Source of the DNA: a virus
Taxonomy: Duplodnaviria; Heunggongvirae; Uroviricota; Caudoviricetes
Reading direction: 5' to 3' (one strand)
Virus record (IMG/VR): IMGVR_UViG_2778261231_000009
Span: 1 to 32,704 of that record
Length of the DNA: 32,704 nt
The translations under genes were made by a program, and so were the position numbers. A model generated the notes under the pieces. It was not told the origin of the DNA, did no database searches, and saw only the letters and a program-made list of their open reading frames with translations. Each line of letters starts with the position of its first letter. The first letter of the stretch is position 1. Shown here piece after piece: positions 3,293 through 25,136 of this stretch.

Positions 3293-3642
3293 CAGCTGAC
3301 CTTAACCGGATATTTCCAGGTCTGCGGCGTTCCGCTCGCAGACGTGACGGTGATATGAAGCAGCATCCAGCCTTTTTGCCAGTGCTCTGCAGTAACGGAA
3401 ATGGACTGGGCGCGACCGTCGTCAATAATCGGTTGCAGGGCCTGCCGCGAATACTGCACCGCGAGTTGTTGAACGCGAGACACATCCTTTTCGCGGCGGA
3501 GTGTATGCAAAAGAGAGCCCAGAGTTGGATCAGCCCACCATGAGCCAAGGGGCGTCATCAGCCGTAAGTAGACGGCATTCGCTAAAGAGTCTGAGCTGTC
3601 GCCGGTATAATCGCCGGTCGTTGGATCAATCAACATTTCCAT
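3292..3642 (-). CDS. Baseplate wedge protein, GPW/gp25-like (Mu gp46 / V-like)
   Basis: 116 aa; synteny; start codon lies inside an 8-bp inverted repeat and is preceded by the conserved late motif. Confidence 0.75.
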   Translation of the reverse strand: MEMLIDPTTGDYTGDSSDSLANAVYLRLMTPLGSWWADPTLGSLLHTLRREKDVSRVQQLAVQYSRQALQPIIDDGRAQSISVTAEHWQKGWMLLHITVTSASGTPQTWKYPVKVS

Positions 3643-3663
3643 GCCGTAATACTACCGGCATGG
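3639..3663 (-). promoter_or_regulatory. Inverted repeat CCATGCCG-N9-CGGCATGG containing the V start codon; the spacer contains TAGTAT
   Basis: Seen directly on the plus strand (ccatgccgtaatactaccggcatgg). Confidence 0.5.
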
Positions 3664-3678
3664 AAATTTAAATTATCG

Positions 3679-3700
3679 GTGAAGGGGTTCAGTGGGTATT
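3679..3700 (-). promoter_or_regulatory. Conserved late motif, copy 1 (upstream of baseplate gene V): ATACCCACTGAACCCCTTCACC on the coding strand
   Basis: Same core as the other two copies; 24 nt to TAGTAT, then 6 nt to ATG; sits in the 89-bp Q-V intergenic gap. Confidence 0.6.
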
Positions 3701-3731: not shown

Positions 3732-4337
3732 TTACATTTGCTGATTAGGTTTCTGCGTTGTGCCTGCATCACCGCCGTGGTCGTGGTCGTGACCGTCATA
3801 AGTCTCACGCATGGTGTTCAGCGTAGACTTGCCGTCAGCGACTTCATTACTGCCTTTCAGCAATGGTGTATCAAAATCTGCCCGCTCTGAGGCTGTGGTT
3901 TTATACGTTTTGGTATTAACAATATGTTGTTCGGTATTCACCGTGTGCTTTTTAGTATTAACGATATATTCATCGCAGTTTACTTCAATTATTTTTCCGC
4001 GCTTCAGAATAATGTTGCTTCCTTCATCCGAATAAATGGCAAGCTCACCACTTTTCAGGCTCTTTAGCCTGTATGCAGCGTGTTCCGTGGCAATCACCAC
4101 GCTATGACTGGTGCGCCCGTTAAGCGGGAGCACAATGGCTTTAGTCCCCCTGGGCGGGTTGGATGTAAAACCGTACTGCTGAAACATCTCCACATCCTGC
4201 AAAGACTCAGTGGCCAGACCTTTACCCTGAATGGTCTGAATATCACCACCGCTGTTAACCCTTATTAAAACGCCCCTGAAGGCCTTTCTTATACGGTTTA
4301 ACGCCGTGTTAATACGAGAGTCAATTTTGTTCCACAT
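3732..4337 (-). CDS. Baseplate spike / assembly protein V-like (Mu gp45 / Q-like) with His-rich C-terminus
   Basis: 201 aa; C-terminal HDHDHGGD resembles metal-binding spike apexes; internal tandem VNT-type peptide repeats. Confidence 0.75.
   Translation of the reverse strand: MWNKIDSRINTALNRIRKAFRGVLIRVNSGGDIQTIQGKGLATESLQDVEMFQQYGFTSNPPRGTKAIVLPLNGRTSHSVVIATEHAAYRLKSLKSGELAIYSDEGSNIILKRGKIIEVNCDEYIVNTKKHTVNTEQHIVNTKTYKTTASERADFDTPLLKGSNEVADGKSTLNTMRETYDGHDHDHGGDAGTTQKPNQQM
3912..3975 (-). repeat. Three imperfect tandem ~21-bp repeats inside the spike gene, encoding IVNTKKH/TVNTEQH/IVNTKTY
   Basis: Seen directly: ggtattaacaatatgttgttc / ggtattcaccgtgtgcttttta / gtattaacgatatattcatc on the plus strand; coordinates approximate. 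Confidence 0.5.
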
Positions 4338-5538
4338 CGATAATCTCCAGCTCTTTATTTACTTTGGCGCGACGCTTACGTGATTTGCGTTTTTTCGGAT
4401 AAGCATCCGGTATCCATATTCCATCCTCTTTGAGCCGCAGGGTGGTAATGGTGTTGTCTGGACGACCACCTGAAAACTCTCTTCCCATGAGGAAGTAAAT
4501 GTCATCAATGCCATGTGGCTCGCTTCGGACACGAATACGCTGGCCCGGTTGCCATAACTGACCGTTCTCCATGCGATGGCCTTTAACAATTACTGTCAGA
4601 TCAAACCCGTTCAGACGGGCGTCAGCCATGGCCTTTCTCGCGCGATAATCAACCTGCGCCTGATTATCAGCATCACCAGCAACCATAATCTGCGGACGAT
4701 AGAAAGGTACGGTACTGTCGCGAACGGTACTACGTAAGCCATGAAAGCCATTCTCTGCAGAGCCGGTGCTGTCATAAATTGCGTCGGCATCATCATCGTC
4801 TTCAGCCTCAGCGCTCTGATCATCAACGTCAATAACTTCCAGTCTTCCTGACTTTTTCCCCTGGCCGTGTCCCTGTGCCAGCATTGTCAGTTCAGAGAAC
4901 GCACCGGTAATGGATGACCGGTCACTGAGATCGAGGACATTATTTCCCCGACCGTCACGATTCAGAACAAGCGTGGCTACAGGGTCTTTTGTGTAATCCG
5001 GCCCTCCAATTACCAGCGTGCCATCTGGCTCAAACCATGGCCATAACCCGCGTGCAGCAGCTGCACGCTCAAGGGTATCCCACGCACGTTCTCCGGGCTC
5101 CACGCTGACCTTGTCATTACGCAGGGATGACTCAGCCTCGATGCGGATGTTCGTTATCCCCAGCGGTCTGACAACCTGGGCGATCACCTCTTCAAGACTG
5201 AGCTGGCGGGAGGTAAAAACGGGTGAAGCGCAGTCAACAAGCACGGCTGCACCATCGCGACCGGAAAGAGATAAAGAAACCTGCTGACGGGATACCCGGC
5301 GCTGAACCACATCCACCCGACCGGACATGACAACATCATTACCCACCCTGACCAGCACCGGCACACCACGTTTAATGGCCGGAGGGAAAATACCATCAGG
5401 CAGCCCAAGCGTTACGCTCCATGCATCGGAGGGGATCAGAAAATCGGAGTCAATCTGATAGCGGCTCCATGCACTATGGATTTTGCCATCAATAACCAGG
5501 CTCACTGTATTCTGCGAATCTTTATCTTGAGTAGGCAT
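4321..5538 (-). CDS. Baseplate hub protein, Mu P (gp44)-like
   Basis: 405 aa; synteny downstream of the N-like gene; start overlaps the upstream gene end. Confidence 0.8.
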   Translation of the reverse strand: MPTQDKDSQNTVSLVIDGKIHSAWSRYQIDSDFLIPSDAWSVTLGLPDGIFPPAIKRGVPVLVRVGNDVVMSGRVDVVQRRVSRQQVSLSLSGRDGAAVLVDCASPVFTSRQLSLEEVIAQVVRPLGITNIRIEAESSLRNDKVSVEPGERAWDTLERAAAARGLWPWFEPDGTLVIGGPDYTKDPVATLVLNRDGRGNNVLDLSDRSSITGAFSELTMLAQGHGQGKKSGRLEVIDVDDQSAEAEDDDDADAIYDSTGSAENGFHGLRSTVRDSTVPFYRPQIMVAGDADNQAQVDYRARKAMADARLNGFDLTVIVKGHRMENGQLWQPGQRIRVRSEPHGIDDIYFLMGREFSGGRPDNTITTLRLKEDGIWIPDAYPKKRKSRKRRAKVNKELEIIDVEQN

Positions 5539-15486: not shown

Positions 15487-15506
15487 GGTGCCGACGATAC
15501 GGCACC
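15487..15506 (-). promoter_or_regulatory. Inverted repeat GGTGCCG-N6-CGGCACC abutting the I start codon; the spacer is the TATCGT hexamer
   Basis: Seen directly on the plus strand (ggtgccgacgatacggcacc). Confidence 0.5.
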
Positions 15507-15519
15507 ACTGCGGGGAGGT

Positions 15520-15738
15520 TCAGATGAAGAGGTTCAGTGGATTATCGCTGAGGATCGCTTTGGTTGTCGGCTTATCGGGTTTAGCAGACTGACGCCTGCG
15601 GGCAAAGTATCGGTCAGTGAACCACTCAGCAACTTTTATAACCAGCCCCCCTAAGATGCCAATGAAAACCCACTGCTGCGGGGTGAAATAATCAAGGAAA
15701 GCTTTGAATGTGTACAGTTGCCCGCTCCCGTAATGCAT
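15520..15738 (-). CDS. Small predicted membrane protein (72 aa) in the G-I spacer; may not be coding
   Basis: One hydrophobic helix (WVFIGILGGLVIKVAEWF); weak Shine-Dalgarno; its 3' end overlaps the conserved late motif. No gene is expected at this position in Mu. Confidence 0.3.
   Translation of the reverse strand: MHYGSGQLYTFKAFLDYFTPQQWVFIGILGGLVIKVAEWFTDRYFARRRQSAKPDKPTTKAILSDNPLNLFI
15523..15544 (-). promoter_or_regulatory. Conserved late motif, copy 2 (upstream of I): TAATCCACTGAACCTCTTCATC on the coding strand
   Basis: 17-nt core CCACTGAACCNCTTCAY shared with copies at ~3679-3700 and ~23680-23701; 24 nt to TATCGT, then 7 nt to ATG. Confidence 0.6.
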
Positions 15739-20884: not shown

Positions 20885-21091
20885 TTAATGGTGATTACGG
20901 AGGGCTTTATTAACCTCGCTGATAAAGCGGTTCATCGACTCGATGCCGGTTTTATCTCGTTCAACGTCGAGGCTGTAGCAGCCTGTCGACGTCGCGACGG
21001 TTACGTTTCTACCGCCCGCGAACCGGATCCCCAGCACGTCACTGGCCATCACAAAAATTTCACTGTTAACCCGGATTAACTGGTCAGCCAT
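20885..21091 (-). CDS. Small hypothetical protein between the terminase subunits
   Basis: Internal start MADQLIRVN… chosen from track ORF 20885..21196; about 68 aa; no recognisable domain. Confidence 0.4.
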   Translation of the reverse strand: MADQLIRVNSEIFVMASDVLGIRFAGGRNVTVATSTGCYSLDVERDKTGIESMNRFISEVNKALRNHH

Positions 21092-21584
21092 AGTGTTGTT
21101 CCATTTCCTTGCCGAATGGTTCAAGGATCTCAACGAATGCCGCCAGGTGCTTCGGATAGTGCTCTGCAACAAACGCGCTGAGCTTCTGGATAACATCCAA
21201 CGCTACCGCCAGCTGACTCACCTCCGGCAGTATTTTCTTGTTGGCTGCGACGGCTTTGTTAAATGCATCGGCAAGGCTTGCCAGAAGCTCGACGCGCTCT
21301 CCCGGAGGGAGCTGAGACTCGGTTGTGAGCAGTTCCAGCGTGGTCTGATACTGGGTCATTAACCCGGTGAGAATGGCGCGGCCAATCTCTTCAAGCCCAT
21401 TCCCGGCCATAAGGTGTGCGGCGCGTAACTTATCCCAGTCATCGCCTGCGTCCTGGGCTTCCTTCTTCCAGCGGCGAGCTGTCGCAAATGCCACGCCAGC
21501 CTGAGCGGATGCGATTTCAAGCGACATCTGGCCGAAGATATAAGATCGTCGCAGTTTTTCCCGTGTTTCCTGCGGATGCGCCAT
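21084..21584 (-). CDS. Putative terminase small subunit / DNA-binding protein (Mu gp27-like, DUF1804-type)
   Basis: Internal start MAHPQETREKLRRSYIFGQ… chosen from track ORF 21084..21719; position upstream of terminase large subunit. Confidence 0.65.
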   Translation of the reverse strand: MAHPQETREKLRRSYIFGQMSLEIASAQAGVAFATARRWKKEAQDAGDDWDKLRAAHLMAGNGLEEIGRAILTGLMTQYQTTLELLTTESQLPPGERVELLASLADAFNKAVAANKKILPEVSQLAVALDVIQKLSAFVAEHYPKHLAAFVEILEPFGKEMEQHYG

Positions 21585-21585
21585 A

Positions 21586-21870
21586 TCACAGCTCCAGTTT
21601 TGCGCGAATGAGCAGAATCGCCACCGTGATGACACCGCCTGCAATTCCACCCGTAATCGCACCGGCAGACGCACCACGGCGAGCCGCATCGTCGCTGATG
21701 GTCGTGAGGCGAACATCAATCCGGCTCAGCTTGTCATTAATCCCGCCCAGAATGTCCGGGCTGACGGGGGCCTGCAGGCGTTCGAGCTGAGCGGAAATCC
21801 GGCTCAGCGTTTCCTGCTCGCTCTGGCTGATTGTCGCGCGGCGGGTTCTGCGCTTATGTCTGGCTTTCAT
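21586..21870 (-). CDS. Small membrane protein (C-terminal transmembrane helix), lysis/packaging-region protein of unknown role
   Basis: 94 aa; basic N-terminus, coiled-coil-like middle, Gly-rich hydrophobic C-terminus (GAITGGIAGGVITVAILLI). Confidence 0.5.
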   Translation of the reverse strand: MKARHKRRTRRATISQSEQETLSRISAQLERLQAPVSPDILGGINDKLSRIDVRLTTISDDAARRGASAGAITGGIAGGVITVAILLIRAKLEL

Positions 21871-22121
21871 TTGTCCTGTTTCCTGTCCAGTTTGTTATCA
21901 ATGCGCTCGATAGCCGCTCGCAGCTCCCTCATCGCATCCATCATTGCGGTGTAGTTACTTTTCGCATCCTCACGGCGCTGGTATTCATCCCGGATGCGAT
22001 CAACCGCCTTTTCCAGGTCGGTAATGTCTTTTTGCAGACGGCGTATCCAGATGGTGCCGAAGGTTGCAGCCAGCGCCAGCGCAATCTGAAAGGCCATATC
22101 AAGAGTCATGATGTTGTTCAC
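21867..22121 (-). CDS. Small membrane protein (N-terminal transmembrane helix plus coiled coil), holin/antiholin-like candidate
   Basis: 84 aa; FQIALALAATFGTIWI helix followed by charged coiled-coil. Confidence 0.5.
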   Translation of the reverse strand: MNNIMTLDMAFQIALALAATFGTIWIRRLQKDITDLEKAVDRIRDEYQRREDAKSNYTAMMDAMRELRAAIERIDNKLDRKQDK

Positions 22122-22750
22122 TTCCTGTAATACTCATTTATTGCCTGCAGCCTGCCCTCAATGAGCTGGCACCATGCGCCGTATTCCGCTGAAAACGACA
22201 CTATTCCAGTGGGGGAGAGTCCGCCACCGGTGCCTGTGGTCTGGCCGGTATGACCAGGAGCGCCGCTGGCGGTGGCTGGCAGATGCTGACCAGCGGGGAG
22301 GCTTTCGGATCCTGAGTAGCCAAAGGCTTCACGGAAGAGCTGCAGGCCGCCAGGGCCAATGCCGGTATAACCAGGACCATCTTTATCAAGTGCATCTTTA
22401 AGCCTCTTTTTAAGATCGCGAACAGTCTCGTCATGTGCCTTTTGCTTTTCAGCCAGCTCGCGGGTCAGCGCATCCGCTTTCTGCTGCCAGGCGTTCTGCT
22501 TATCAAGTGCAGCCTTCAGGTCAGCTGCATACTGATTTGCAGCGCTGAGCCTCTCCTGATCCCACTGCCGTTCTTTTTCACTGAAACCATCAGTCAGGCG
22601 TTGCTTCTCCTGGCTGAAGGCCAGCGCCTGAGCGTCCAGCTTGTTGCCTGTGAGGAAGGTGCCGAACCATATCCCGCAGCCTGCCAGAACCACGACGACG
22701 AGCAGCGGTTTCCAGCTAACCCTCAGGATTTTCTGGGCTGCTTCCCACAT
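22118..22750 (-). CDS. i-spanin (Rz-like)
   Basis: Internal start MWEAAQK…; N-terminal helix LLVVVVLAGCGIWFGTFL then a long charged coiled-coil periplasmic domain; contains an embedded lipoprotein ORF in another frame. Confidence 0.65.
   Translation of the reverse strand: MWEAAQKILRVSWKPLLVVVVLAGCGIWFGTFLTGNKLDAQALAFSQEKQRLTDGFSEKERQWDQERLSAANQYAADLKAALDKQNAWQQKADALTRELAEKQKAHDETVRDLKKRLKDALDKDGPGYTGIGPGGLQLFREAFGYSGSESLPAGQHLPATASGAPGHTGQTTGTGGGLSPTGIVSFSAEYGAWCQLIEGRLQAINEYYRK
22201..22395 (-). CDS. o-spanin (Rz1-like outer-membrane lipoprotein), embedded in the i-spanin gene
   Basis: Internal start MHLIKMVLVIPALALAAC… gives a signal peptide with an L-A-A-C lipobox, followed by a Pro-rich mature peptide; entirely inside the i-spanin ORF in a different frame. 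Confidence 0.6.
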   Translation of the reverse strand: MHLIKMVLVIPALALAACSSSVKPLATQDPKASPLVSICQPPPAALLVIPARPQAPVADSPPLE

Positions 22751-22979
22751 CGCGCACCTCTCTGGCTCGTTTGATGGACATATGTTTTGATGCCTGACTC
22801 TGAGCCACCCACGCGCCCAGATAGGTGAGATACAGCTCACCAGGAGTTTCGGGGCGGGTAACGGTGAGCCAGACCAGTACGAAGGAACTGACCAGGAAGG
22901 CCAGAAAAACGATGGTGTCTGACGTAGAGAGACGACCGGTGGCCGGGTTCGTCACCAGATCGCGCAGAGATATTTTCAT
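22716..22979 (-). CDS. Small membrane protein, holin candidate
   Basis: 87 aa with one strong helix (IVFLAFLVSSFVLVWLTV); ATG overlaps the endolysin stop. Confidence 0.5.
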   Translation of the reverse strand: MKISLRDLVTNPATGRLSTSDTIVFLAFLVSSFVLVWLTVTRPETPGELYLTYLGAWVAQSQASKHMSIKRAREVRDVGSSPENPEG

Positions 22980-23620
22980 AGCGCCGCCTTAGCGACATTC
23001 AGCCGCGCCACGCGGTCAGCCTGACCTTCAGCCGGAGGGTTGATACGCCGGGTTACGGCCAGAAAATTGCCTTTGTCAGCCAGCTCGTTGCAGCCATTTG
23101 CCTTCCAGTACCAGGCAGCGCTGCGGGCTGCGTTGAGATACTCCAGTAACAAATCGGGATTCGCGATGAGATCGAGGCCCAGCGCCTTACCGCAAAGGCG
23201 GTAATTATTGCGCAGGGTAATCTGAATCAGGCCACGTCCGCGAAAGCGCCAGCCATCGCCTGATGCTTCATTACCGTTACCCCCCTGATTTGCGTAAACA
23301 TAATTCGCCATTTTTTCAGGGTTACGGGTATAGCGTCGGGCAAATTCAATCTCGCAGGGCTCGATAATACGATTCTTATTGAGATCGAAGTCGCTGCGGA
23401 AAATACGCGCCACGCGCTCAGCATCAGAGTAATAGAGATTTTCACTGAGCCGACTGAAACCCGCGCTTTCATGGCCGGTTTGAGCAATAAAGGCGGCAAG
23501 TCTGGCGGGTGTATTAATTTCGAATTCAGCGGTGGCTTTACCGAATGGTTCAAACCATCGTTGCGCCATCACTGGCGAAAGAGCTGCTGCACGCTGAAAT
23601 TGTGGGAGTGTTAAAAGCAT
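22976..23620 (-). CDS. Endolysin, glycoside hydrolase family 19-like (soluble, no N-terminal signal-anchor)
   Basis: 214 aa; …AAFIAQTGHESAGF… and overall pattern resemble GH19 phage lysozymes; first gene after the late motif and a leader hairpin. Confidence 0.8.
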   Translation of the reverse strand: MLLTLPQFQRAAALSPVMAQRWFEPFGKATAEFEINTPARLAAFIAQTGHESAGFSRLSENLYYSDAERVARIFRSDFDLNKNRIIEPCEIEFARRYTRNPEKMANYVYANQGGNGNEASGDGWRFRGRGLIQITLRNNYRLCGKALGLDLIANPDLLLEYLNAARSAAWYWKANGCNELADKGNFLAVTRRINPPAEGQADRVARLNVAKAAL

Positions 23621-23621
23621 A

Positions 23622-23649
23622 ACGCCATCCGGTTAAAAAGGGATGGCGT
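23622..23649 (-). promoter_or_regulatory. Leader hairpin (9-bp stem, 10-nt loop) immediately upstream of the endolysin ATG, covering the GGA Shine-Dalgarno-like bases
   Basis: Plus strand acgccatcc-ggttaaaaag-ggatggcgt; seen directly. Confidence 0.5.
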
Positions 23650-23679
23650 CAGTATTTCATCGGGTTAGGTGAATAATCA

Positions 23680-23701
23680 GGTGAAGAGGTTCAGTGGAAT
23701 T
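23680..23701 (-). promoter_or_regulatory. Conserved late motif, copy 3 (upstream of lysis cassette): AATTCCACTGAACCTCTTCACC on the coding strand
   Basis: Same 17-nt core as copies 1 and 2; about 60 nt upstream of the endolysin ATG. Confidence 0.6.
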
Positions 23702-24200
23702 AGTTGTCAAACTGTACAACAAACTGATCTTTCTCTTCACTGTACCATTTCACTGTATATGAAAACACTCTATCAGAAACAGTCAAGTTACAGTGTCTCA
23801 CTGCATTAACCCGGTCATAACTCATTTGCGCGGGCTCAGAGAATTTTTCTCCATTCAGCAACTCTGTAAGAACAGAATGGACATCGGATGAATCACAGCC
23901 AGGTAAATCACCTTTGTAAAAATTAATCACTGGGGCAATAAATGCTAAAATGAACATCAGGACATAAACTGATAAGGGGCTAACATTTTTTCCGCCCTGG
24001 ACACTACTGGCATCATCCGAGTCTGATAATGCACTTCCGATTAATTTTTTTCTTTTAAATAGATACAATGGAATGACAATGAAGAATATGAATGCTGAAC
24101 CAATCCCCCAACGGGCAGGTCTTGCAATGTTATTGGTGATAGCATCTTTGTAAACAGCAACAGAAGCACCGAATATAATTAAAGCAATTAAAAACTCCAT
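23700..24200 (-). CDS. AT-rich moron: three-helix membrane protein with ~70-aa C-terminal soluble domain, unknown function
   Basis: 166 aa; hydrophobic segments at roughly residues 2-17, 32-48 and 75-95; region visibly AT-rich versus flanks (estimated by eye at high-30s % GC against mid-50s); occupies the slot between the Mor/C-like gene and the lysis cassette. Confidence 0.7.
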   Translation of the reverse strand: MEFLIALIIFGASVAVYKDAITNNIARPARWGIGSAFIFFIVIPLYLFKRKKLIGSALSDSDDASSVQGGKNVSPLSVYVLMFILAFIAPVINFYKGDLPGCDSSDVHSVLTELLNGEKFSEPAQMSYDRVNAVRHCNLTVSDRVFSYTVKWYSEEKDQFVVQFDN

Positions 24201-24213
24201 GTATATTACCTTT

Positions 24214-24648
24214 TTAAAAAAGTTCTTGTTGATTGATTGATGTGTTTTGTCTGTGCTGGCTTAGTAACTGCCATCCAAAACGATCGCTGAATCCATACTT
24301 AGGGCAAAGAAAGGTCATGGCCATAAGAGAGGATGAACCTTGTTCACGCACTTCGGCGAACTCGGCGAGAAAGCGGCGGTTGCGTAATTCACGAAGGGCA
24401 CGATCACAGCGCGGTAAATAGAGAACTTCTCCGCCGAAATTCTTGATGAGTAATTGGGTTTTATCATCGCCGATAGTATTGCGCAGGAGGGCTGCGCGGC
24501 TGGCCCCCATAGCGCGGAGGCCTTTACCTATCGGGAACGTGGTGCCACCAAAAGCAGAAAGAAGCTGCTCGGTCGCCGGGAAGCCTATCAGGTCAGCTAT
24601 TTGAATCACTGCTGATGGCAGCAGCTCCGTTACCTGTTCCAGATTCAT
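24214..24648 (-). CDS. Mor/C-family transcriptional activator
   Basis: Internal start MNLEQVTELLP…; GGEVLYLPRC… and the basic C-terminal half resemble Mu Mor/C; overlaps the 3' end of the GemA-like gene. Confidence 0.7.
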   Translation of the reverse strand: MNLEQVTELLPSAVIQIADLIGFPATEQLLSAFGGTTFPIGKGLRAMGASRAALLRNTIGDDKTQLLIKNFGGEVLYLPRCDRALRELRNRRFLAEFAEVREQGSSSLMAMTFLCPKYGFSDRFGWQLLSQHRQNTSINQQELF

Positions 24649-25069
24649 TATTACGCTCCCGCTTTTTTCGCCGACTCGCATCAATGCTGAGAGCCTGCAT
24701 GAGTTTGGTTAACTGTTCAGTCGTCAACCACTCGATGTATTTGACGTGAAACATATGATCGCACATTTTCTCGGCATAATTCCACGGACGTTTTGCATCT
24801 GCAAGTAATGCGTTAATTTTAGAAAGAATTGACTCGCGCGTATTGGCAACCTTTGGGCGTCGACCGTGTTTTACTGAGTAGCGAGGAAAACCCTTGTCAT
24901 GCATATATTCCATGACAGCCTGCAGCTCGTCGAGGGTGCATTTAGTGGATGATGTTTTACCGTTGCATAAGCGAGACAGAACACTACGGTAGGTTACCTC
25001 ATCCCACCCCAGATATGCCTGACCGGCTTTAATTGCCCCTATAAGGCCTCGTTTTGCTGGCGTGGACAT
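24593..25069 (-). CDS. GemA-like regulatory protein (Mu gp16, DUF1018-type)
   Basis: Internal start MSTPAKRGLIGAIKAGQAYLGWDEVTYRSVL… preceded by a GGAG Shine-Dalgarno; matches the N-terminal pattern of GemA-family proteins. Confidence 0.7.
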   Translation of the reverse strand: MSTPAKRGLIGAIKAGQAYLGWDEVTYRSVLSRLCNGKTSSTKCTLDELQAVMEYMHDKGFPRYSVKHGRRPKVANTRESILSKINALLADAKRPWNYAEKMCDHMFHVKYIEWLTTEQLTKLMQALSIDASRRKKRERNNESGTGNGAAAISSDSNS

Positions 25070-25136
25070 AATATTTCTCCTGTTGGTTGTCATTATCGCA
25101 GGCACTTTATGAAGTGCCTGCTGTAATGACTTACTT

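Follow-up and report, generated by a model that had tools for sequence, protein, structure and literature searches.

A variable gene between mor and the late lysis promoter

The stretch of viral DNA analysed here (32,704 nt; Caudoviricetes; positions 1 to 32,704 of IMG/VR record IMGVR_UViG_2778261231_000009), hereafter the window, holds most of a Mu-like prophage whose coding strand is the minus strand; all features of the window described below lie on that strand. Our subject is the gene at 23700..24200, which starts with ATG, has 166 codons at a G+C content (GC) of 0.38, encodes a 166-aa three-helix membrane protein and is the sole long open reading frame (ORF) of the interval between mor, the gene for a Mor/C-family transcription activator, and the endolysin gene. 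This gene is prophage accessory cargo at a hotspot, i.e., an element of a known kind; the notable parts are the slot in which it sits, the two-module protein family to which its product belongs, and the hairpins at the late promoters. Upstream, the slot begins at the mor stop codon (mor, 24214..24648 in its 144-aa form, or to 24684), from which the cargo ATG is separated by a 13-bp spacer (24201..24213) containing a Shine-Dalgarno-like AAGG/AGGT. Downstream, the slot ends at CCACTGAACCTCTTCA (23682..23697), a candidate Mor-type activator site at the late lysis promoter that begins 3 nt past the cargo stop codon. The window gene is one "allele" of this cargo slot, which runs from the mor stop codon to the late lysis promoter in an Enterobacterales Mu-like lineage.

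The cargo ORF is a real protein-coding gene under selection. Between the window and the copies of Klebsiella and Pectobacterium, the proportion of nonsynonymous differences (pN) is 0.19-0.26 against a saturated synonymous proportion (pS) of 0.75-0.85, which argues for strong purifying selection on the protein. Close homologues recovered in a first homology search form 16 clusters, from Enterobacterales only, at 47-98% identity, and the identical protein is found on 201 contigs from Salmonella, E. coli, Enterobacter, Citrobacter and Cronobacter, labelled "hypothetical protein" in every case. Truncated or fragmented copies do occur in some genomes and could be taken to indicate a decaying or spurious ORF without function; this is extremely unlikely given the strong purifying selection, the residues invariant across 59 sequences, the confident AlphaFold model, and the presence of one identical protein on 201 contigs of several genera. 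The gene is thus intact and selected, with occasional decay in some genomes.

The AT-richness of the ORF, on which the initial annotation had remarked, is confirmed by the ORF check and by base composition. GC per 300-nt interval is 0.36-0.39 over the cargo gene and 0.55-0.59 over the lysis genes, with approximately 0.53 for the whole window; the GC of the cargo gene is 0.38, with 0.34 at third codon positions (GC3), compared to 0.50 and 0.50 for mor. Set against flanks at 0.50-0.58, the gene thus has the distinct composition by which morons are recognized. That it is non-core as well as deviant is evident from close and distant relatives, which hold unrelated genes in exactly this interval. 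The initial annotation had also called the gene foreign; this stands as a description of its composition, but not as a claim of recent acquisition. Copies of the window family (family A, below) are 45-69% identical between lineages, compared to 61-84% for Mor and 64-89% for the DUF1804 protein. As cargo divergence is comparable to that of these backbone proteins, the association of the cargo with this phage lineage is old. Low GC is moreover retained in every family A copy, which suggests that the AT-richness is kept by selection or for a regulatory reason instead of stemming from recent transfer.

Comparison of relatives defines the slot to the base pair. E. coli FDAARGOS_1303 shares 95% identity with the window in the flanks, yet its cargo is an unrelated 159-aa signal-peptide protein; Klebsiella phage ST405-OXA48phi1.1 has yet another protein at this position. 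Junction alignments with relatives containing other cargos show similarity stopping exactly at the mor stop codon and returning right after the cargo stop, at CCACTGAACC(C/T)CTTCACCTGATT ... ATACTGA. A survey by Mor-anchored scan, with one genome per species, provided 12 more loci, to which other loci were added. Among the surveyed Enterobacterales Mu-like prophages, at least five unrelated cargo families occupy the slot, all with a GC of 0.34-0.41 and each lying between the mor stop codon on one side and the CCACTGAA...ATACTGA motif on the other. The expectation that relatives might have different genes at this site, for which the initial annotation had proposed a check, is thus borne out. 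By inspection, the N-terminus is signal-peptide-like or transmembrane (TM) in four of the five families. We found no description of the mor-stop-to-late-lysis-promoter slot, or of the cargo protein, in the literature searched.

Family A, the three-helix family, is present in the window, in Klebsiella (locus L001) and in Pectobacterium (L003), with an 89-aa shortened form in Yersinia (L018). Family B (signal peptide followed by "DGYQxQRNLAF...CAWRKILL...NPDK"; phrog_5882) is found at six loci, family C (a signal-peptide protein; phrog_29261) at two, family D (signal peptide and "DGYKxVKFGSS"; phrog_36303) at two, and family E, a 52-aa zinc-ribbon-like ORF, at one. None of the five has an assigned function or a PADLOC match. 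All phage-borne family A copies examined lie in the slot, including those of Klebsiella, Pectobacterium, Pantoea, Salmonella, and eight IMG/VR contigs of 32-38 kb; three of these eight contigs encode a 96-aa version without the C-terminal domain. The shortened forms of 89-96 aa (L030-L032, 3992-4282; L018, 3448-3717) consist of the three helices only and end right at the late motif, and each may be functional as a minimal form or simply truncated.

Families B and C share a near-identical C-terminal peptide, (E/Q)(I/L)(Q/E)IIDV(T/P/D), just before the late motif; the loci concerned are L005 (3800-4279, minus strand), L006 (3593-4072, minus strand), L012 (3445-3936), L013 (1100-1546), L015 (3438-3893) and L022 (3438-3956). 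This peptide could be a functional tail or a relic of a recombination junction. The gene after mor is faintly DcrB-like (E 0.006, which misses the Pfam cut-off) in a more distantly related prophage with Mor, that of Klebsiella sp. MISC125 (L021, 3471-3836); the periplasmic protein DcrB has been linked to sensitivity to phages.

Predicted late promoters, hairpins and the probable gemA-mor transcript

The 16-nt motif CCACTGAACC(T/C)CTTCA has three copies in the window (23682-23697, 15525-15540 and 3680-3695), each on the coding strand of the prophage, compared to 0.24 copies expected. The placement of the gene directly upstream of a late motif of the lysis genes was therefore correctly described in the initial annotation, and in relatives the motif directly follows the cargo stop codon whichever cargo is present. 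Phage Mu has a small set of activator-dependent late promoters. As three copies match such a set, the single Mor-type activator probably binds this motif at three late promoters, analogous to Plys, PI and PP of Mu. At the lysis promoter it is followed by ATACTGA (23649..23655), a conserved and putatively -10-like element kept in nearly all relatives at approximately 42 nt from the motif start.

ATACTGA is separated from the start codon of the first lysis gene by a hairpin (23620..23651; core ACGCCATCC, a 10-nt loop, and GGATGGCGT), the 3' arm of which holds a Shine-Dalgarno-like sequence and touches the endolysin ATG. Its folding energy is -17.4 kcal/mol in the window and -14.6 to -19.1 kcal/mol in 14 distinct relatives with different stems; that these differing stems all fold indicates compensatory changes. 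Hairpins are present at the other two late-motif sites as well (15487-15506 and approximately 3637-3666), where the start codon of the following gene lies next to or within the structure and a -10-like hexamer is in the loop. We hypothesize that these structures block translation of late genes on read-through transcripts. Late transcripts starting approximately 7 nt past the -10 element, within or beyond the 5' arm of the hairpin, would lack that arm; read-through transcripts from the cargo gene would carry the full hairpin, such that the lysis genes would be left untranslated on early or lysogenic read-through.

How the cargo gene itself is transcribed bears on whether it is a moron. In the loose sense of variable and compositionally deviant cargo, the term used in the initial annotation is apt: presence varies between conserved flanks, with at least five unrelated cargos. 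In the strict sense of a gene with its own promoter and terminator, it is not. A simple consensus scan of the minus strand detected no sigma-70-like promoter upstream of the cargo gene, although weak or atypical promoters inside mor would be compatible with this result; the 13-bp gap itself is too short for a promoter, and the scan found no intrinsic terminator downstream. Upstream of gemA, a promoter scan likewise gave nothing convincing. Most simply, from the 13-bp gap and the lack of a detected promoter or terminator, the cargo gene would be the last cistron of the gemA-mor transcript. Low-level transcription from Pe has been observed in Mu lysogens (Saha et al., PMC3820752), and reference 71 of that paper, as cited there, reported constitutive expression of the gem operon in such lysogens.

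The interval between mor and the lysis promoter is differently filled in Mu. The initial annotation had stated that this position is taken by the late activator gene C; C is indeed there, but not alone, as the curated Mu record lists Pm, gp18, gp19 (four TM helices), gp20 (one TM helix) and C between mor and Plys. These Mu genes sit behind the Mor-dependent Pm together with C, whereas the window phage is without Pm and C: there is no Pm-like copy of the late motif upstream of the cargo gene in the window, and the cargo protein, a membrane protein, has no Mor-type DNA-binding domain (PF08765) in Pfam and is thus outside the Mor/C family. The presence of a single Mor/C-family gene was also upheld, with one such ORF found in the window by phmmer, which is a weak test here, and one listed per relative in precomputed Pfam tables. 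When Mu gp18, gp19, gp20 and C were compared by phmmer to all window ORFs, the cargo protein was similar to none of them (E>1 for gp19 and gp20). The gp19 and gp20 proteins are non-essential membrane proteins and not holins (PMC9239132). They resemble the cargo in interval, in being small membrane proteins, in their function-less annotation and in dispensability, but differ in architecture, with four and one TM helices as opposed to three plus a predicted periplasmic domain. The window-Mu parallel is thus positional, with dispensable membrane proteins situated just before the lysis promoter in both phages.

This parallel raises the alternative that the cargo is a lytic-cycle (early or middle) membrane protein, a counterpart of gp19/gp20 that is made only after induction and plays no part in lysogenic conversion. 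Produced from the tail of the early transcript, it would exclude secondary infection during the lytic cycle or condition the host membrane. Imm and Sp of phage T4 exclude secondary infection in the lytic cycle. The 13-bp gap to mor, the lack of a detected promoter or terminator, the sharing of an interval with non-essential middle-gene membrane proteins of Mu, and a cargo divergence that follows that of the phage backbone are all as such a role would have it. However, there is no sequence similarity to gp19 or gp20, the free swapping for unrelated exported proteins argues against a fixed developmental role, and the constitutive gem-operon expression in Mu lysogens, as cited above, leaves room for expression in the lysogen. 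On balance, we consider a purely lytic-cycle role to be somewhat unlikely.

The first gene of the late lysis cassette encodes a GH19 endolysin (22976-23620; Pfam Glyco_hydro_19; phrog_181 endolysin, 3.9e-81), followed by a DUF2644 two-helix membrane protein (22716-22979) and an Rz-like spanin (22118-22840); a DUF1804 protein similar to Mu D is encoded at 21084-21719. With three TM helices and a gene next to that of the endolysin, the cargo protein has features of a holin or antiholin, i.e., of a core component of the adjacent cassette. Nonetheless, the cargo gene lies upstream of the late motif, and hence outside of the late lysis unit, and it is absent or replaced in close relatives with the same cassette, which is not the behaviour of a core lysis component. 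Family A, moreover, occurs both with GH19-DUF2644 and with Holin_2-3-SLT cassettes, which have unrelated holin candidates (DUF2644 and Holin_2-3), and either cassette is also found alongside other cargos, GH19-DUF2644 with B, C and D. Neither Pfam nor PHROGs yields a match to a holin family, and a folded C-terminal domain of 70 aa is atypical for holins. A specific holin or antiholin role is thus very unlikely.

On the other side of the slot, mor is assigned through Pfam Mor (1.8e-08) and phrog_836 "late transcriptional activator" (1.7e-39), with the 144-aa form agreeing with annotated relatives, and is preceded by gemA (24593-25105). At approximately 25103-25124, in the short gap between gemA and the ORF upstream of it, is a perfect 9-bp hairpin, CAGGCACTT-cata-AAGTGCCTG, that might act in termination, in processing or as an operator; in the curated Mu record, the equivalent region upstream of gemA contains an annotated semi-early promoter. 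In the deposited annotation of Klebsiella phage ST405-OXA48phi1.1 (MK388859.1), mor is uncalled, leaving a gap between GemA and the cargo (L006, approximately 4073-4461), and some product names are implausible, including "ammonia monooxygenase", "PilA" and, for the DUF1804 protein, "transposase".

A two-module membrane protein family

The three TM helices and C-terminal domain posited for the cargo protein in the initial annotation are present in its AlphaFold model (mean predicted local distance difference test score, 85.8), which places helices at aa 2-22, 28-59 and 75-95, followed by a C-terminal helix and four strands. Module 1 is a two-helix membrane hairpin (aa 1-59; 24024..24200), delimited by alignments and by the first two modelled helices. 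Its conserved positions are Y17-x-D19-A20 at the end of TM1, W31, P44-x-Y46 and R50, with KRKK next. A poorly conserved acidic linker precedes the third TM helix (aa 75-95; 23916..23978), supported by both model and alignments, after which module 2, a helix-plus-four-strand domain of approximately 70 aa (aa 100-166; 23703..23903), begins with "LPxCDS".

A profile search of 1.8 billion representative proteins detected 218 relatives at E≤1e-3, and a second detected 121 at E≤1e-5, the majority of which come from environmental metagenomes and metagenome-assembled genomes, e.g., of Woeseiaceae and Polyangiales. Full-length relatives (150-205 aa) follow a common plan. TM1 ends with [WY]-x-D-A and leads via a short external loop to TM2, which starts with W and ends with F-P-x-Y-L-x-K-R; then come a variable linker, TM3, "LPxCDS", a helix, and strands with R-x-C and Y-x-V-x-W. 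From this we derive a family signature, namely [WY]-x-D-A, the W at the start of TM2, P-x-Y-x(3)-R at the cytoplasmic end of TM2, TM3, "LPxC", and a second cysteine in "R-x-C". The window protein has all signature residues (Y17, D19, A20, W31, P44, Y46, R50, P100, C102, R135 and C137). Across 59 sequences, all of these are invariant or nearly so, among them P44, R50, C102 and C137 (invariant) and D19, A20, Y46, P100 and R135 (nearly invariant); W152 is nearly invariant as well. As judged from sequence, this is a so far unannotated family of two-module membrane proteins with approximately 200 detectable members.

The two modules also occur apart from each other. The hairpin is found alone or fused to SHOCT, LprI, GYF_2 or zinc-ribbon domains, and the C-terminal domain either follows one N-terminal TM helix or is repeated in tandem 3-5 times, with the two cysteines in every copy. 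Among the repeat proteins, five metagenomic ones of 430-540 aa (P0044, P0045, P0053, P0054 and P0068) combine a membrane anchor with 3-5 copies of the domain. Each copy contains "LPxCDSPEV" and "R-x-G-x-C", and the copies constitute an unannotated repeat family without a Pfam match. A likeness of the N-terminal hairpin to PLDc_N, considered on account of the SHOCT fusions, was dropped for want of Pfam support. The KRKK loop that follows TM2, the pairing of invariant cysteines and the existence of the repeat proteins lead us to infer an N-in, C-out topology in which the C-terminal domain would be periplasmic and disulfide bonded.

None of the resources searched suggests a function. The cargo protein has no family match in Pfam, PHROGs (E up to 0.01), NCBIfam or PADLOC (E up to 1); searching Pfam at E up to 10 with 15 close homologues gave spurious hydrophobic matches only, and with 83 distant relatives it gave accessory zinc-ribbon or TPR domains only, covering neither module. 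Structure searching of BFVD with the cargo protein returned nothing below E 0.05, and fold comparison against the PDB gave no informative match, the fold of the C-terminal domain being generic. The role in superinfection exclusion, abortive infection or host benefit offered in the initial annotation thus finds no counterpart in PADLOC, PHROGs, Pfam or NCBIfam or among fold matches. With a single helix on a four-stranded antiparallel sheet, the C-terminal domain is similar to cystatin-, NTF2-, VirB8- and PepSY-like domains (PrgL, 7aed; DotI, 3wz4; cystatin, 6i1m; YpeB, 5boi). VirB8, DotI and TraM have such a domain on the periplasmic side of the inner membrane, to which it is tethered, and the same arrangement is predicted for the cargo.

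The breadth of the family brings up the further possibility that the cargo is a host-fitness envelope protein unrelated to phages (acting in stress tolerance, with a periplasmic host partner, or in colonization) that was captured from a cellular family. Outside of Enterobacterales, members are chromosomal, stand-alone and encoded beside ordinary metabolic and regulatory genes, and the hairpin is combined with domains (SHOCT, LprI, GYF_2 and zinc ribbons) that are typical of cellular membrane proteins. Within Enterobacterales, however, all copies examined lie in Mu-like prophages, and always at this one slot, where they alternate with unrelated exported proteins, which is the usual pattern for phage-competition genes; we therefore regard such a role as unlikely. 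The gene context of the distant members shows neither conserved neighbours nor prophage surroundings, and guilt by association thus yields nothing.

Possible roles at the cell envelope

We tentatively propose, at clearly less than even confidence, that the cargo protein is an envelope-level exclusion or phage competition factor, whose periplasmic domain would block genome entry by competing phages. Three considerations lead us to this suggestion: nearly all alternative cargos are exported, unrelated alleles alternate at one site, and the protein has an exclusion-protein-like design. Alternation of unrelated alleles at one prophage site is the usual pattern for phage-phage conflict genes, and exclusion proteins recurrently turn out to be small and membrane-anchored with an external domain. 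T4 Imm, P22 SieA, HK97 gp15 and lactococcal Sie2009 are all small inner-membrane accessory proteins, some with an external domain; the likeness is architectural only, and the cargo protein resembles no entry of PHROGs, PADLOC or BFVD in sequence or fold.

Under this proposal, the two-helix hairpin and the third helix would anchor the protein in the inner membrane with the KRKK loop in the cytoplasm, holding the helix-plus-sheet domain of approximately 70 residues, probably disulfide bonded, at the periplasmic face of the membrane. The gene would be transcribed as the last of the gemA-mor unit, possibly at a low level in lysogens, in keeping with the reports on the Mu gem operon. The periplasmic domain would then bind a component of the envelope or of the incoming phage, and genome entry of rivals would be blocked.

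Several observations weigh against an exclusion role. The gene has no detected promoter of its own, so that expression from the repressed prophage is presumed. The distant members of the family are encoded singly on the chromosomes of environmental bacteria, without phage context, for which reason the ancestral role of the family was probably cellular and not anti-phage. Shortened copies in some relatives (fragments of 89-109 aa and the 96-aa form without the C-terminal domain) mean that this domain may be dispensable or that the gene sometimes decays.

As a genetic element, the cargo resembles phage morons (as described by Juhala and Hendrix) and the P2/P4 defence hotspots, being a single AT-rich, swappable and dispensable gene with precise boundaries. 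It differs from morons in the lack of a detected promoter or terminator of its own and in its old association with a phage lineage. Regions of genomic plasticity with low-GC accessory genes are also described for Mu-like phages of Pseudomonas (PMC4378225).

A broader and more speculative conjecture, which we consider improbable as a whole, is that the slot is a dedicated hotspot for envelope-directed phage-competition genes, that the window cargo founds a new class of entry exclusion, and that the late-promoter hairpins insulate the lysis genes and thereby permit cargo expression in the lysogen. If true, this class would be built from two so far unannotated modules, both of them also common in membrane proteins of cells: the D/W/P-Y-R hairpin in the membrane and, in the periplasm, the disulfide-bonded helix-plus-sheet domain, which is able to form tandem arrays.

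If, conversely, the exclusion proposal is wrong, the window gene encodes one more conserved hypothetical membrane protein, and the main yield is a cleaner annotation of this group of phages. In either case, the slot is now defined with base-pair boundaries, and prophage cargo slots are a productive source of new exclusion and defence functions. At least five uncharacterized, envelope-targeted candidate families are thereby brought to attention, i.e., the window family, phrog_5882, phrog_29261, phrog_36303 and the small zinc-ribbon-like ORF; should the exclusion proposal be correct, a new class of mechanism would be added.

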